From: a virus
Reading direction: 5' to 3' (one strand)
Virus genome (UHGV): UHGV-0139000
Length of the DNA stretch: 41,137 bases
The notes beneath the pieces were generated by a model. The model had not been told where the DNA came from. It searched no databases and was given only the letters and a program-made list of their open reading frames with translations. Shown piece after piece: positions 16,394 through 29,757 of this stretch; the stretch's first letter is position 1, and each line of letters starts with the position of its first letter. Both the position numbers and the translations under genes were made by a program.

Positions 16394-17335
16394 TTAAATG
16401 CCATCAACGTACGAAATGGTTTCTTTGTACACTGGCTCAACCGCACCCAGCTTGCCGTAGTAAGTGACGATCTGATACAGACCGCGATACTGCACCGGCA
16501 CGCTCTGAAGCGGAACCAGCGGGTAGCGGACGTATTTTTTATCGTTGGTGTACGCAACCATGCGATCCTTTTTCCCCACACCACGGCCTTTCAGCCATTT
16601 AACCGCGCGGATATTCAGCGGAACACCGTTCTGGTGATAGCTGATGGTGTTGGTCTGAAGATACGTCAACAGGGACTGGTTACCCGCAGATGAAACGATG
16701 ATGCTGGACAACAGAGCAAACTGCTCAGGCGGGATCAGCAAATCACGCGGAACCACAGAGTAACCGGAAGCGGCCCACGCATCAGACAGCACCTGGTTAA
16801 TGCTTGCGCGGATTTCGTCCGGTGTTGAGGTTGCCCACGTTTTAGCAGCGTTGTTGACAGGCACGCCGTCCAGGGTAACAAGGCCTTTCAGGTTTAATGC
16901 GGAATCGCCAACATATACCTGTTCATCGTTATCCATCTGCCATTTCAGTTGCATACCGTCATACTTCTGCGTATCAATCGGGCGGCCGACCTGCTGAGCA
17001 GCCTGCAATTCTATGACCGTCCAGCCAAGTTCCATCCCCCACAGGTTCAGCGGGTTACCGGATTTGCCGATATCCACGTTCACGCCAGCAATAGCGGTTG
17101 AGTCTTTGCCTACCCAGTTTTTGCCATTCGGATTTGCACCAGTACCCGCAGCGGCGAAGCTGGTATTCGTCCAGCTGGAAATGTCATCTGCGATGGAGAC
17201 ATCTTCACGCAACTGAATATCGCGGGTCCAGGTGTACCCCACCAGTGGCAGGTTCAGCGTCTGGTCGAGTCGCTCCAGCTCCCCGATGAGAAAGGCACCA
17301 GAGCTGTCAACGGTTGCCTGATCAAAAGTAATCAT
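16394..17335 (-). CDS. major capsid protein (putative)
   Basis: 313 aa following scaffold-like and decoration-like genes; a GC-rich hairpin (16362..16381) follows the stop. Confidence 0.55.
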   Translation of the reverse strand: MITFDQATVDSSGAFLIGELERLDQTLNLPLVGYTWTRDIQLREDVSIADDISSWTNTSFAAAGTGANPNGKNWVGKDSTAIAGVNVDIGKSGNPLNLWGMELGWTVIELQAAQQVGRPIDTQKYDGMQLKWQMDNDEQVYVGDSALNLKGLVTLDGVPVNNAAKTWATSTPDEIRASINQVLSDAWAASGYSVVPRDLLIPPEQFALLSSIIVSSAGNQSLLTYLQTNTISYHQNGVPLNIRAVKWLKGRGVGKKDRMVAYTNDKKYVRYPLVPLQSVPVQYRGLYQIVTYYGKLGAVEPVYKETISYVDGI

Positions 17336-25899: not shown

Positions 25900-26322
25900 T
25901 TATGCCGCCGAGCAGCTCCTACGCAAAGTCCTGATAGCCTGAGGCTTTGACTGAACCGACTGATCCATTTCGAGCACCACATCCAGCATGGCTAAGCAAC
26001 CGTCAATAAATCCCTCTGCCGCCTGAAGCCTCTTCAGAACGTGGGTGTGAGATACGCCGAGCTTCTCACCCATCGCCCTCACGGGCATGGCCTGGACGTA
26101 ATGCCACTCAAGGAGCGTGCACAGATACGGATCTTTTTTCTTCAGGCAGCTCATAGCGGAGTTGATGATAAGACCGTCATTGTCACTGCATTTCAGCCTT
26201 CCAGACTGCGTCGCGGGTAGCAGATTCTTAAACCCGGCTGCAACAGGAGGAAAGTAGACGCTACCACCTTCACTCGCTGCCCAGCCACCCCAGCGCTCTA
26301 AAACCTGTTGAATATTACGCAT
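25900..26322 (-). CDS. late-gene antitermination protein Q-like
   Basis: 140 aa, N-terminus MRNIQQVLERWGGWAA resembles enterobacterial prophage Q-type antiterminators as I recall them; sits upstream of late leader, terminators and lysis genes. Confidence 0.55.
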   Translation of the reverse strand: MRNIQQVLERWGGWAASEGGSVYFPPVAAGFKNLLPATQSGRLKCSDNDGLIINSAMSCLKKKDPYLCTLLEWHYVQAMPVRAMGEKLGVSHTHVLKRLQAAEGFIDGCLAMLDVVLEMDQSVQSKPQAIRTLRRSCSAA

Positions 26323-26449
26323 AGCTCTGACCTCTACGTTTTGCTACGAAAAAATTTTCTGAGAACTACGTCTGTATATCCGTGGGTGTGGATAACGCAG
26401 TTCCGATTCGCATATTGCATGTATCAACATGCAAAAAGTTGCTAATGCG

Positions 26450-26645
26450 GAGTGGAACCACCTGCCCCCACCTGGAACCACCTTTTCCTAACCTTTCCCT
26501 CAATCGACTTATATATATATATGGGGTTTCTAGTAGAAAGGCGGTTCCAGTGGTTCCAGTGGTTCCGCCCCGCTTGCCACAAGGTCTGCAAGGTGGAACC
26601 TCCTTCTCTTTTAGGTGGTTCCGCGTGGTTCCAGCGGTTCCCAAA
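26450..26645. repeat. iteron-type replication origin
   Basis: Nine copies of GGTTCC/GGAACC (26454, 26474, 26543, 26552, 26561, 26595, 26617, 26627, 26636), several as GTGGTTCCA in both orientations, flanking (TA)n at 26509..26522; overlaps the 3' end of the primase gene. Confidence 0.7.
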
Positions 26646-28797
26646 CCTTGCATTTTTTCCCCCCAATTCGCCTTTGGGCACGCTTATACCCGCAATTTTG
26701 CAAAACATTACTAATTCGCATTTCTTCGCGTTTTCCGATGCGGTCAGGATTTAGCCCAATCGCATCACGCAAAACATCACTTGCGCGTAAAAATTCGCAA
26801 TTTCGCGGAAGTTCATTAGCCATCAGGTCTGGCGTGTCGAGCCATTTCTCTACCGTTTCAAGCCAAGCATCCTTGATGGTGTACTGTTCATGGACACTCG
26901 CTGCCAGTTGTTCAGCCTCACGGAACTGGATACCCCCCAGACGCTGAAACACCTCACGAGCCTCAGCCCAAAGTAAAAGGAGATCTCTTTTTATCGCTTT
27001 CACGTCGACTTTCGACACTTCCACGGGGAGCCAGCGACGGTTACCAGTCTTGTCCGCAAGGAATTCGTCCTCATTGGTGGTACCAACGAACACCAGGCGA
27101 CGAGGAAACTGGGTGGCGAACTCCCGGTATTTCGGGATCCAGTTTTCGTGAGTACGCGTCACAAACGCTTTGATTGACTCCAGCTCTTTGGTATTAAGTC
27201 CGCGCAGTTCACCAATCTCTGCCACCAGCCGACCACGCATTTTTCGAGCGAGATCATCGTCTTTTTCGGCAAAAGAGATTTCAGTAAAAAACGCAGGATC
27301 AGGGCTCAGTGCCTCCACTCCGGAAGACTTACCGCAGCCCTGCGGACCAACGAGGATCGGCACCATATCCGCTTTGATGCCTGGCTCCAGTACTCGCCCC
27401 GCCAACGCGGTCCACATGTACATAGACACCGCACGGGTATAAGGCGTGTCGGCTGTACCGAAGTGCGTATGGTAGAAACATTCGATGCGCGGCACGCCAT
27501 CCCACTCCAGCCCGTTCAGCCAGGTGATCGCTGAATCGAATGGTTGTTCATCGGCTGCAAGTAACACCACATCGCGAATAAGTTCACGACCAACAGGTTT
27601 AAATCCCCGCTTTTCCATCGTGATGCGCAGGCGCGCATAATCCGCATCGGTGAATGCTCGCCATTGTCCGGATCCTGCAGGGGCAAACATGATTTCGTCG
27701 CGGAACTGGTCAAAGCGAATATCGATGTCCACAAAATCAGGGCGTACTACTGCTTTGGCTGCGTTGCTGATGGTTGCCTCGATACGCCCCCATTTATCAC
27801 GCTCGAAAGCAGGCAGCGGTAAAGGTTCCGCCACTTCGGTGCTGGTCAGATCTTCGAAATCGTCGTTGCGGATCCCGATGGCATTAAGGAAATCTCCGTC
27901 ATCACGATGCGCACAACTGGCATGCAGGCATTTAAAATGCCCCTGCTCAAAGCCCGCGGTTCCCGCAGGAAAATAAGCTGTGCTTGTTGGATCGCCCCCG
28001 CTACTGTGGCCGTCTTCAAACGGACAGCGGATATATCGTTCACCATTTGCGCCATCCAGCAGCGTCCAGCCATTGGCATCAAGATATTCAGCTGTATCAT
28101 CCGTCGCGCCGGGCGTGAATGCTGATCGGTCGCGCATCTTCGTGTTGCCCGCTTCGGTGGTTACCGACACAGGGAGTTGTTCAGCCAGGCGCTGCCACAG
28201 CGTTTCAAGCTGCTCACCAGTAATAGCCGGAGGTTCATCCGGCAAACCACCGTCCCATTCAATACGCGCGCCGCTGCTGTGCGTACCACAGGCAACGAAC
28301 TGCTGCCCGTTCGCCAGCAACTCGATAATGCCCATATCCCCCGCCAGGCGATGGATACGCTTACGGAAATCACCATCAACGGCCAGCAGATACAGACACT
28401 TATTACTGTTTGCTCGCCAGCGTCGCGGCGGCAACTCCCCCAGAAGTTGCACAAGCGTTTTGCGAATATCTGCCTGAATGTCTTCATCTTCGCTATCGCA
28501 GTCCAGCGCCAGCCAGCCATGGCCTGTACGCACGCAGATGCCATAATCCGGTTCATTCGACCAGCGGGCAAAATCATGCTCAGTAACAACATACCCGGTC
28601 CATTGAGCAATACCGGTGACCTGGCGGTCCCGGTTATAGCGACTTGGCGTCTTACCCAGCGCTTTCAGTTTACTATCAGGGGATATGGTCGCACCGGGGT
28701 TACATACAACTGGGAGAAGATGCTCAGTTCTCCCCAATACCAGGTCGAAATGAAACCACTCATCAGGCGTAGCTCCCCATGGTTTGCTATCGGACAT
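26611..28797 (-). CDS. replicative primase-helicase (P4 alpha-like)
   Basis: 728 aa; Walker A VGPQGCGKSSG in the C-terminal half; N-terminal region primase-like; origin iterons at its 3' end; start 3 nt after the cro stop. Confidence 0.75.
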   Translation of the reverse strand: MSDSKPWGATPDEWFHFDLVLGRTEHLLPVVCNPGATISPDSKLKALGKTPSRYNRDRQVTGIAQWTGYVVTEHDFARWSNEPDYGICVRTGHGWLALDCDSEDEDIQADIRKTLVQLLGELPPRRWRANSNKCLYLLAVDGDFRKRIHRLAGDMGIIELLANGQQFVACGTHSSGARIEWDGGLPDEPPAITGEQLETLWQRLAEQLPVSVTTEAGNTKMRDRSAFTPGATDDTAEYLDANGWTLLDGANGERYIRCPFEDGHSSGGDPTSTAYFPAGTAGFEQGHFKCLHASCAHRDDGDFLNAIGIRNDDFEDLTSTEVAEPLPLPAFERDKWGRIEATISNAAKAVVRPDFVDIDIRFDQFRDEIMFAPAGSGQWRAFTDADYARLRITMEKRGFKPVGRELIRDVVLLAADEQPFDSAITWLNGLEWDGVPRIECFYHTHFGTADTPYTRAVSMYMWTALAGRVLEPGIKADMVPILVGPQGCGKSSGVEALSPDPAFFTEISFAEKDDDLARKMRGRLVAEIGELRGLNTKELESIKAFVTRTHENWIPKYREFATQFPRRLVFVGTTNEDEFLADKTGNRRWLPVEVSKVDVKAIKRDLLLLWAEAREVFQRLGGIQFREAEQLAASVHEQYTIKDAWLETVEKWLDTPDLMANELPRNCEFLRASDVLRDAIGLNPDRIGKREEMRISNVLQNCGYKRAQRRIGGKKCKVWEPLEPRGTT

Positions 28798-28800
28798 GGG

Positions 28801-29013
28801 TTAAGCCTTTTTATCGTTTTGTGAGCCATACAACAGCCAATTAGGGTCGCAATCCAATGCTATAGACATTTCAAGAAGATAACGTGGCCGAGCAATAACA
28901 CCACTTTCAATTCTGTTTATTGCCTGCTGGCTCACTCCTGTGAGCTCAGCCAACGTAACTTGCGTCATTTTGAGTTCTTTACGTCGTTCTTTTACTCGGG
29001 TCGCTAAGGTCAT
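28801..29013 (-). CDS. Cro-like HTH repressor
   Basis: 70 aa from the ATG at 29013 (GAGG 8 nt upstream); HTH MTQVTLAELTGVSQQAINRIESG; divergent from cI. Confidence 0.75.
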   Translation of the reverse strand: MTLATRVKERRKELKMTQVTLAELTGVSQQAINRIESGVIARPRYLLEMSIALDCDPNWLLYGSQNDKKA

Positions 29014-29133
29014 TGCTTTCACCTCATACAATTTTAGTGGTATTTAGCAACAACAAACGAGGTTTGTCAAATACAACAAAAATTGTTTTTAATGTGGGTA
29101 TACACATTAATACAACCCAGAAGGACTAATCCC
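29014..29133. promoter_or_regulatory. divergent cro/cI promoter-operator region
   Basis: Contains the operator-like dyad atacaa-N6-ttgttt (29071..29088), palindrome caaac-gag-gtttg (29054..29066) and an extra atacaa half-site (29110..29115). Confidence 0.55.
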
Positions 29134-29757
29134 ATGTCTCTCGCAGCCCGTTTTAAAGCACGTCGTTTGGAATTAGGAATGACTCAAGTGGAAGTAGCGA
29201 ATTCTGCAGGGGTTAGCCAACAATCCATAGAATCCATCGAAAGTGGACGAACCAGAAAGCCACGCAATCTTCTGGATCTGGCTAAGGCCTTGAAATGTAG
29301 CCCAGACTGGCTACTGAACGGTAAAAATATTATGCCTCTCGCGGAGATAAGTACCAGACGCATACCTATATTAAGTTACGTTCAGGCAGGAGAGCTTACA
29401 GAAGCAAGAGACATAACAGATCTGACAGGGGAATTTGAATATATTTTGGCAGACTCTGACATTCCAGAAACATGCTTCGCATTACGTATTGATGGCGACA
29501 GCATGCAACCAGAGTTTAAAGAAGGAGACATTGTTATCATCGATCCTGATCTATGTCCTGCACCAGGGGAGTTTGTTGTCGCCAAAAACGACGGTCACGA
29601 AGCTACATTTAAAAAATACCGTCCATTAGGAATCGGCATCGACGACTTTGAATTAATCCCCCTAAATCCTGATTACCCTATTTTTCGTAGTGCAGATATG
29701 AACTTACAGATCATAGGTGTAATGATCGAACACCGTATTTACCGCCGTAAACGTTAG
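29134..29757 (+). CDS. CI-type repressor with LexA-like S24 autopeptidase domain
   Basis: N-terminal HTH (MTQVEVANSAGVSQQSIESIESG); Ala-Gly cleavage site in SYVQAGEL; C-terminal domain with GDSM (Ser) and FKKY (Lys); AGGA 8 nt before the ATG. Confidence 0.85.
   Translation: MSLAARFKARRLELGMTQVEVANSAGVSQQSIESIESGRTRKPRNLLDLAKALKCSPDWLLNGKNIMPLAEISTRRIPILSYVQAGELTEARDITDLTGEFEYILADSDIPETCFALRIDGDSMQPEFKEGDIVIIDPDLCPAPGEFVVAKNDGHEATFKKYRPLGIGIDDFELIPLNPDYPIFRSADMNLQIIGVMIEHRIYRRKR

Follow-up and report, generated by a model that had tools for sequence, protein, structure and literature searches.

The viral genome UHGV-0139000, analysed here over its whole length of 41,137 nucleotides (the window), contains on its minus strand a 728-amino-acid (aa) open reading frame (ORF; 26611-28797) whose 3′ end runs into a cluster of short repeats surrounding an AT-rich core. 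An earlier note, made from the sequence alone, had counted at this site nine GGTTCC/GGAACC hexamers in both orientations flanking a TA run, with the last three inside the final codons of a primase-helicase gene, and had taken the cluster for an iteron replication origin. All nine exact hexamers were located (starts 26454, 26474, 26543, 26552, 26561, 26595, 26617, 26627 and 26636), and those at 26617, 26627 and 26636 fall within the last nine codons of the ORF (EPLEPRGTT), upstream of its stop codon at 26611-26613. The interval 26454-26641 holds 9 of the 22 hexamers present in all 41,137 bases, where the density in the rest of the window would give ~0.07 per 211 bp (Poisson P ~1e-16), and in 300 shuffles of the window no 200-bp segment contained more than three.

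The true repeat unit is longer than the hexamer: it comprises 8 bp (GGAACCAC), or 8-10 bp when the flanks are included (CTGGAACCAC). Six exact and three one-mismatch copies of GGAACCAC lie in the array; elsewhere in the window there are two isolated exact copies, at 16749 and 25256, for a random expectation of ~1.3 in 41 kb (2 x 41137 / 4^8), and no second iteron cluster, of the kind represented by P4 crr or by an alternative origin, was found. A tenth, degenerate unit, GCCCCCAC at 26464-26471, sits in phase between both distal copies and is kept in relatives (loci L054 and L082). Spaced by 9-10 bp, the ten units (26452-26641) form four groups around the core, and the repeat blocks have a GC content of 60-67%. 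The gene-end triple (26615-26641, minus strand) consists of GGAACCGC at 26634-26641 and of GGAACCAC at 26625-26632 and 26615-26622, with 9-10 bp spacing within the last nine codons, and its outermost unit also covers two bases of the Trp719 codon. The protein tail EPLEPRGTT results from the iteron GGAACC being read in that frame; where the iteron of a lineage has TAA or TAG in it, the first unit ends the ORF. Just past the stop codon lies a single unit in the opposite orientation (GGAACCTC; 26595-26602, plus strand), whose position and orientation recur in relatives. The central triple (26541-26566, minus strand; GGAACCGC, GGAACCAC and GGAACCAC) borders the gene-proximal flank of the core in exact 9-bp phase and is found in most related loci, with a lineage-specific sequence. 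The distal triple (26452-26481, plus strand) is inverted with a 10-bp phase, its degenerate middle unit being enclosed by GGAACCAC at 26454-26461 and at 26474-26481. Between these two triples, the core (26490-26540; 23-30% GC) contains an alternating TA run of 13 nt (26510-26522) and, on the sense strand, the motif GGAAAGGTT; we propose it as the DNA-unwinding element and helicase entry site. The inverted triples make the single strand foldable (z = -3.8); this follows from the symmetry of the array and provides no independent evidence.

Related loci were gathered from viral contigs (80), from one genome per species (25) and by exact protein look-up (4). About 95 related loci, ranging from Escherichia to a Burkholderiales metagenome-assembled genome (MAG), retain both the layout and the AT-rich core, which supports the iteron origin of the earlier note, with the amendment that its unit is 8-10 bp rather than a hexamer and is present in ten copies rather than nine. 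Wherever enough downstream DNA was available, two to three units lie over the stop codon, followed by one inverted unit, a spacer, a 9-bp-phased group that usually has three units (but two in a few loci, for example, L106), the core and up to three inverted units. Within one locus nearly all copies share the same lineage-specific sequence, and this sequence differs by lineage: GGAACCAC, GTACCAAC, GTTACCAC, GTAACCAC, GTA(A/T)CCAC, TAGACAAC, TAGACCAC, GTCCCAAC, GTCCCCAC, GCAACCAC, G(A/T)AGCCAC, GTAACAAC, AAGACAAC and GTCACCAC were seen. In the Yersinia phage YeP4, for example, the protein is 73% identical over its whole length and the origin has equal architecture and spacings (9 and 75 bp), built from GGTTGTCTA as opposed to GGTGGTTCC in the window. 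The core sequence (ACTAAGAACCCCATATATATATATAAGTCGATTTGGGGAAAGGTTAGAAAA) is common to all iteron types and lineages; even the Burkholderiales MAG (L087), whose protein is only 50% identical, has the TA run and GGAAAGGTT. The earlier note had named the absence of the repeats from relatives with the same primase as the observation that would speak against it; in these relatives the layout is kept, and each lineage has its own iteron sequence. A binding-site array co-evolving with its reader would leave such a pattern, in which positions and core stay constant and the motif is replaced in a coordinated manner at about ten sites.

Two variants of this layout were observed. In L105 (Photorhabdus caribbeanensis), an expanded origin occupies 0-330 bp past the stop codon, with at least 11 copies of GGAACCAC and extra groups on both sides of the TA core. 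In some near-identical relatives (L017 and L030) the TA run is longer than in the window, with 11-12 overlapping ATATATA heptamers compared with 7, and its length is thus polymorphic in a microsatellite-like manner.

The same relatives bear on the idea that the repeats are a non-functional tandem or inverted expansion, or part of small genes. Four ORFs of 88-110 aa are listed across the repeats, covering the region on both strands, and a strong AAGGAGG precedes a TTG at 26591. Among relatives, however, small ORFs vary in strand, position and length; they have no conserved counterpart in 12 representative loci, with L035 lacking any, and we rejected them as genes, in line with their earlier description as repeat artefacts. 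Neutral repeats, for their part, would not be expected to keep their architecture from Escherichia to the Burkholderiales MAG at 50% protein identity. We therefore consider either version of this idea scarcely credible. The AAGGAGG itself lies within the inverted iteron (26591-26606, minus strand), 7-8 nt before the TTG, which opens a 49-codon frame across the origin; this frame is not conserved in relatives and is probably a by-product of the iteron sequence.

The 728-aa protein matches Pfam VapE over residues 427-639 (E 2.3e-60) and, when the N-terminal 299 aa were scanned alone, the archaeo-eukaryotic primase (AEP) family Prim-Pol (PF09250) over residues 76-188 (E 2.4e-10, above the curated cut-off); many close homologues carry a precomputed Prim-Pol assignment as well. 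No Pfam match to a Toprim domain was obtained in the protein, and the match to the D5-like family DUF5906 remained below the Pfam cut-off (24.2 vs 27.6 bits). Both halves of the earlier label primase-helicase were therefore recovered, with the primase being an archaeo-eukaryotic Prim-Pol and not of the DnaG type. The only solved sequence relative was PDB 7PDS (E 8.6e-34), which is Rep1 of the staphylococcal pathogenicity island (SaPI) SaPI1 bound to DNA (PMC9371898), and an AlphaFold model of residues 400-728 matched the same structure in Foldseek (E 3e-12, ~359 columns). Weaker Foldseek matches were to the helicase regions of the primase-polymerases of phage NrS-1 and African swine fever virus (ASFV), with the C-terminal region of NrS-1 at E ~1e-3. 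The C-terminal ~90 residues of the 728-aa protein were modelled by AlphaFold2 as three helices and a beta hairpin (helix 689-701, strands 704-711 and 714-721). Three helices followed by a beta hairpin constitute the winged-helix topology, and a winged-helix fold for aa ~640-721 is therefore likely, although not proven. Across 70 distinct relatives, the helix preceding the wing (690-704) is almost invariant, and the most variable six-residue windows are the iteron-encoded tail (720-725), the first six residues of the protein and the wing (712-717).

We propose that the region 26452-26641 is the phage origin of vegetative replication and that the protein whose gene ends inside it is the initiator, with a probability of roughly 0.85. 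The array would represent a pri-rep-ori replicon of the type known from SaPIs and other phage-inducible chromosomal islands (PICIs), placed within a complete temperate phage. From protein binding onward, the following steps are inferred by homology and from the anatomy of the site. The C-terminal winged helix of the Prim-Pol/VapE protein would bind the iterons, whose constant positions (CTG....C.AC) would probably be read by its near-invariant recognition helix and whose variable positions would be read by the wing strand KKCKVW. The inverted central and distal triples would place two hexamers of the 728-aa protein face to face across the TA run, as has been proposed for SaPI Rep; the TA run would then melt, and the helicases would load themselves around the single strands with no separate loader. 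The fused N-terminal Prim-Pol domain would make the first primers for the host polymerase, and the gene-end group of three units plus one is probably auxiliary, providing extra loading sites or copy control.

The repeats could instead form mainly a regulatory array, at which the initiator or another protein blocks or tunes read-through from the rightward promoter (PR) into the antiterminator gene Q or regulates its own gene, while replication starts elsewhere. Downstream of the initiator gene, a stretch with no convincing gene (26323-26610, minus strand) leads to Q (25900-26322, minus strand), which starts 130 bp past the last iteron; all transcription towards Q crosses the array, and prediction gave neither a promoter nor a terminator in the interval from the initiator gene to Q. 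However, the same array and core are found where the downstream gene is not Q (the type-B flanks of L025, L032, L035 and L054), the window contains no other iteron cluster that could act as the real origin, and the symmetric layout around the TA run agrees with that published for origins of the homologous SaPI Rep system. We consider a mainly regulatory array very unlikely; a secondary regulatory or roadblock effect on read-through into Q, alongside origin function, is possible.

The hexapeptide KKCKVW (aa 714-719; codons at 26641-26658, minus strand), which forms the second strand of the predicted wing, is our candidate for the determinant of iteron specificity: about 20 variants of this hexapeptide map without exception onto about 12 iteron sequences. 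The wings KKCKVW, KKSKVW, KKCK(L/I)W and KKRKVW occur with GGAACCAC; KMTRIF, KVTRIF, KMVRIF and KVARIF with GTACCAAC; KLMKVW with GTTACCAC; KVQRVW and KVSKVW with GTAACCAC (for KVSKVW, GTAACCA(A/C)); KVCKVW and KVLKVW with GTA(A/T)CCAC; KQQR(V/I)F with TAGACAAC; KQIRVW with TAGACCAC; KKMRIF with GTCCCAAC; KKQRIW with GTCCCCAC; KSQRVY with GTAACAAC; and KMTKAW with G(A/T)AGCCAC. A terminal Trp in the wing is always paired with ..CCAC and a terminal Phe or Tyr always with ..CAAC, and Gln at wing position 2 is paired with (T/A)AGA in both of these backgrounds. Three near-minimal pairs, each on its own background, were found: KQQRVF/TAGACAAC and KQQRVW/TAGACCAC, the sole pair one residue apart; KKMRIF/GTCCCAAC and KKQRIW/GTCCCCAC; and KSQRVY/GTAACAAC and KVQRVW/GTAACCAC. 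Four wing variants were looked up after the rules had been formed, and all four fitted: KQQRVW was accompanied by TAGACCAC, KGCKVW by GCAACCAC, KQYRGF by AAGACAAC and KVARIF by GTACCAAC.

The correspondence is confined to the wing. The nine residues preceding the hexapeptide do not track the iteron, with KRVQRRVDG occurring alongside at least five types, and neither does overall protein similarity: the L014 protein is 98% identical to that of the window, yet it carries KMTRIF with GTACCAAC, and the L105 protein from Photorhabdus is 72% identical, yet it carries KKCKVW with GGAACCAC, as in the window. In a three-way alignment, the window is identical to L014 up to the RRIGGK codons, diverges from the wing codons to ~26409 and is identical again through the DnaA box and Q; a cassette of ~245 bp, comprising the wing, the tail, all iterons, the core and a palindrome, has thus been swapped as a unit. 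The palindrome (TTGCATGT-ATCA-ACATGCAA; 26415-26434) has perfect 8-bp arms, lies within the block that differs between the window and L014, and marks the distal edge of the cassette.

Such linkage could also mean that the origin or cis site has another reader, which might be Cro, DnaA or some other host factor, or a further prophage protein, and that the match to the C-terminus of the 728-aa protein reflects linkage only. The wing codons and iterons are indeed adjacent and move together in the ~245-bp cassette, and a perfect DnaA box (TTATCCACA; 26387-26395, minus strand), the sole perfect one in the 41-kb window, lies 60 bp past the last iteron. Cro was rejected as the reader, given that one and the same Cro protein can be followed by as many as four iteron types and that a single type can follow unrelated Cro families. 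The DnaA box lies outside the cassette, in the flank common to the window and L014; it is kept only together with this Q-upstream flank, has a degenerate form in L027 and L029, and is absent elsewhere, including where the downstream gene is not Q. It was therefore rejected as a core origin element, and with a single non-conserved box the locus lacks the conserved DnaA-box cluster beside the unwinding element that characterizes a DnaA-dependent origin. The flanking genes on both sides also differ between loci sharing an iteron type, and the regularities between bases and residues reappear on more than one background and correctly anticipated four further loci, an outcome not expected from linkage alone. 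A reader other than the 728-aa protein is thus highly unlikely in our view.

With the 728-aa protein as the reader, the correspondence can be taken one step further. The second wing strand, and not the near-invariant recognition helix, may set specificity in an RFX-like manner through a near residue-by-base code, with a dozen or more orthogonal initiator/origin pairs created on one scaffold by swaps of the ~245-bp cassette; this extension is tentative, and we would place it slightly below even odds. As part of it, wing position 6 would specify iteron base 6 (Trp with C, Phe or Tyr with A), and wing position 2 would correspond to (T/A)AGA for Gln, GTA(A/T) for Val, GTTA for Leu, and GTAC or G(A/T)AG for Met. 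If this is true, the selective pressure for orthogonal pairs is likely to be the avoidance of cross-firing or hijacking between co-resident prophages and satellites.

Several findings weigh against the main proposal, in which the 728-aa protein is the initiator and reads the iterons. The winged-helix part of the model is of medium confidence, with a predicted local distance difference test (pLDDT) score of 65-89 (74-89 in the long model). A Foldseek search with the isolated C-terminal domain returned no significant match (best E 0.03), with nearly all top matches being winged-helix DNA-binding proteins, and a sequence profile of the C-terminal 100 aa gave no meaningful match among PDB chains. 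The wing codons lie 0-25 bp from the first iteron, and their covariation could partly be physical linkage within one cassette; moreover, the rule linking Trp or Phe to C or A rests on roughly three independent switches. Finally, off-type copies, such as the degenerate middle unit and the mixtures in L027 and L029, indicate that recognition tolerates variation beyond a simple code.

The off-type units are of several kinds. In the window, the degenerate middle distal unit (CTGCCCCCAC) differs by a single mismatch from the GTCCCCAC class. L014 has a unit of the GTCCCAAC type in first place at the gene end, GTAACCAC and GTATCCAC occur together among the gene-end units of L027 and L029, and the gene-end units of L025 are also among the off-type cases. 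Such units may be variants that are tolerated, or they may have been left behind by earlier switches of specificity.

The region of the palindrome shows some further regularity. In most of the representative loci examined, a T-run followed by TTGCA occupies the same position (seen in L001, L014, L029, L035 and L087, with AATTTTTTGCA as the Burkholderiales version), and many loci also have the ...TGCAA arm; the TTGCA...TGCAA palindrome is imperfect or absent in some. Read along the direction of transcription, the palindrome of the window is not terminator-like, and promoter prediction gave nothing there.

At its 5′ end, the initiator gene abuts a Cro-like helix-turn-helix (HTH) gene (28801-29031, minus strand; Pfam HTH_3, E 2e-14), beyond which lies a cI-like repressor gene (29083-29757, plus strand). 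At the junction (AAGGCTTAACCCATG; 28795-28809, minus strand), the cro stop codon TAA is followed by 3 nt and the ATG of the initiator gene, with an AAGG Shine-Dalgarno sequence within the last cro codons. The gap between the cro stop and the initiator ATG is 3 nt in 66 of 67 loci, and AAGGCGTAACCCATG is kept even behind unrelated cro/HTH families. The whole 15-nt junction, AAGG(C/T)(G/T)TAACCCATG, is retained (L001-L081) although at least three unrelated HTH/Cro families lie upstream, and as a consequence all of these Cro proteins have ...K-A (or K-V) as their last residues. The junction has the look of a fixed recombination joint and would also carry the ribosome-binding site of the initiator gene. 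This arrangement fits translational coupling of the initiator to cro, as had been suggested earlier. The listed start of the cro-like ORF is TTG at 29031; the ATG at 29012, preceded by GAGGTG, is a likelier start, and just upstream of this ATG lies TTGACA-17 nt-TAAATA, which resembles PR.

The window corresponds to an Escherichia coli prophage. An 801-bp query (26200-27000) is 98-99% identical to chromosomal segments including those of O55:H7 CB9615, O103:H2 12009 and the enterotoxigenic E. coli (ETEC) strain H10407, and was matched in 140 of 5,426 complete E. coli genomes, in 96 of which at least 80% of its length was covered. Relatives occur in Salmonella, Enterobacter, Citrobacter, Klebsiella, Yersinia, Serratia, Xenorhabdus and Photorhabdus. 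In E. coli genome annotation, the 728-aa gene is named only 'VapE domain-containing protein'. The genes of the window, which include terminase, portal, head, tail, holin and Q, make up a complete temperate phage set, and no Rfam or known RNA family was detected in the window. Over 10 kb, the window is 98.7% identical to the isolated Escherichia phages vB_EcoM-606R2 and relatives; the isolated phages with matching structural genes (the vB_EcoM-606R2 group and SEN34) carry another replication module, which precludes a direct comparison. In vB_EcoM-611R5 (ON470588.1, 11829-13079), the replication protein is different though the head and terminase genes are 98.7% identical to those of the window: its N-terminal half is 53% identical to window residues 1-407, and its C-terminal half has no match. 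This comparison indicates domain-level shuffling between the Prim-Pol and helicase parts.

In its genome position, to the right of cro and upstream of Q, and in having iterons that overlap the initiator gene beside an AT-rich stretch, the origin resembles that of lambda. In lambdoid phages, initiator specificity and iterons are exchanged together among relatives, as here. The lambda system differs in its proteins: no O- or P-like gene lies between cro and Q, and the single ORF that fills the space from cro to the repeats has matches to VapE and Prim-Pol only; the earlier note had likewise set the initiator apart from a lambda O/P pair. Here the iterons occupy the 3′ end of the gene, whereas those of lambda are in mid-gene, and with the initiator itself being helicase and primase, no DnaB loader is implied.

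The alpha protein of P4 unites primase, helicase and a C-terminal winged-helix origin-binding domain in one polypeptide and reads 8-bp repeats. The 728-aa protein is alike in combining a primase, a helicase and a predicted C-terminal winged helix in one chain and in being associated with 8-bp repeats, whereas the P4 primase is of the DnaG/Toprim type in place of Prim-Pol, and P4 needs two separated sites (ori and crr) where the window has a single cluster. The structure of the P4 alpha winged helix is 1KA8 (cited in PMC2777425). In its domain order of Prim-Pol, helicase and, by prediction, C-terminal winged helix, the 728-aa protein agrees with ORF904 of pRN1 and with phage NrS-1 (PMC2777425), the fold similarity to NrS-1 being weak. 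For pRN1, no iterons could be found (PMC2777425), whereas the candidate cognate sites are explicit and numerous here.

The closest likeness is to the SaPI/PICI replicons (SaPI1, SaPI5 with its PriRep5, and EcCICFT073). SaPI origins have 6-12 iterons directly after rep; their AT-rich centre is flanked by two or more iterons on either side, oppositely oriented across it. The iterons are recognized by the C-terminal winged helix of Rep, binding and melting are ATP independent, and two hexamers, one per side, probably load without a dedicated loader (PMC9371898). Origins of E. coli PICIs share this layout, and a cloned pri-rep-ori segment of EcCICFT073 was tested for plasmid maintenance against deletion controls (PMC6092414). 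The window has the same elements: a Rep-type (VapE-like) helicase initiator, homologous to SaPI1 Rep (7PDS) by sequence and fold match, with its hexameric state presumed from this homologue; a primase and a helicase fused in one chain, as in PriRep5; and, directly 3′ of the gene, ten units, three of them within the last codons, with opposed triples on either side of the AT-rich centre (minus strand, 26541-26566; plus strand, 26452-26481). The proposed reader, as in SaPIs, would be a C-terminal winged helix, here a predicted one. It differs from these replicons in having a primase domain of the AEP Prim-Pol family, iterons of 8-10 bp compared with 5-6 bp and a first iteron group inside coding sequence. 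Its head, tail, lysis and Q genes, moreover, make the element a complete temperate phage and not a satellite, which would lack a full structural set and depend on a helper. We found no paper describing this enterobacterial replicon. For a widespread group of enterobacterial prophages, the analysis provides a putative origin together with a putative initiator that consists of one protein. The origin itself is of a known kind and could be expected; the natural wing/iteron series is the part worth experiment. These natural pairs, including those separated by one residue and one base, could be used directly to study DNA recognition by a winged helix and could supply orthogonal replication origins. 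As for the comparison with the islands, an origin layout described as a hallmark of PICI satellites occurs in full-size phages too.

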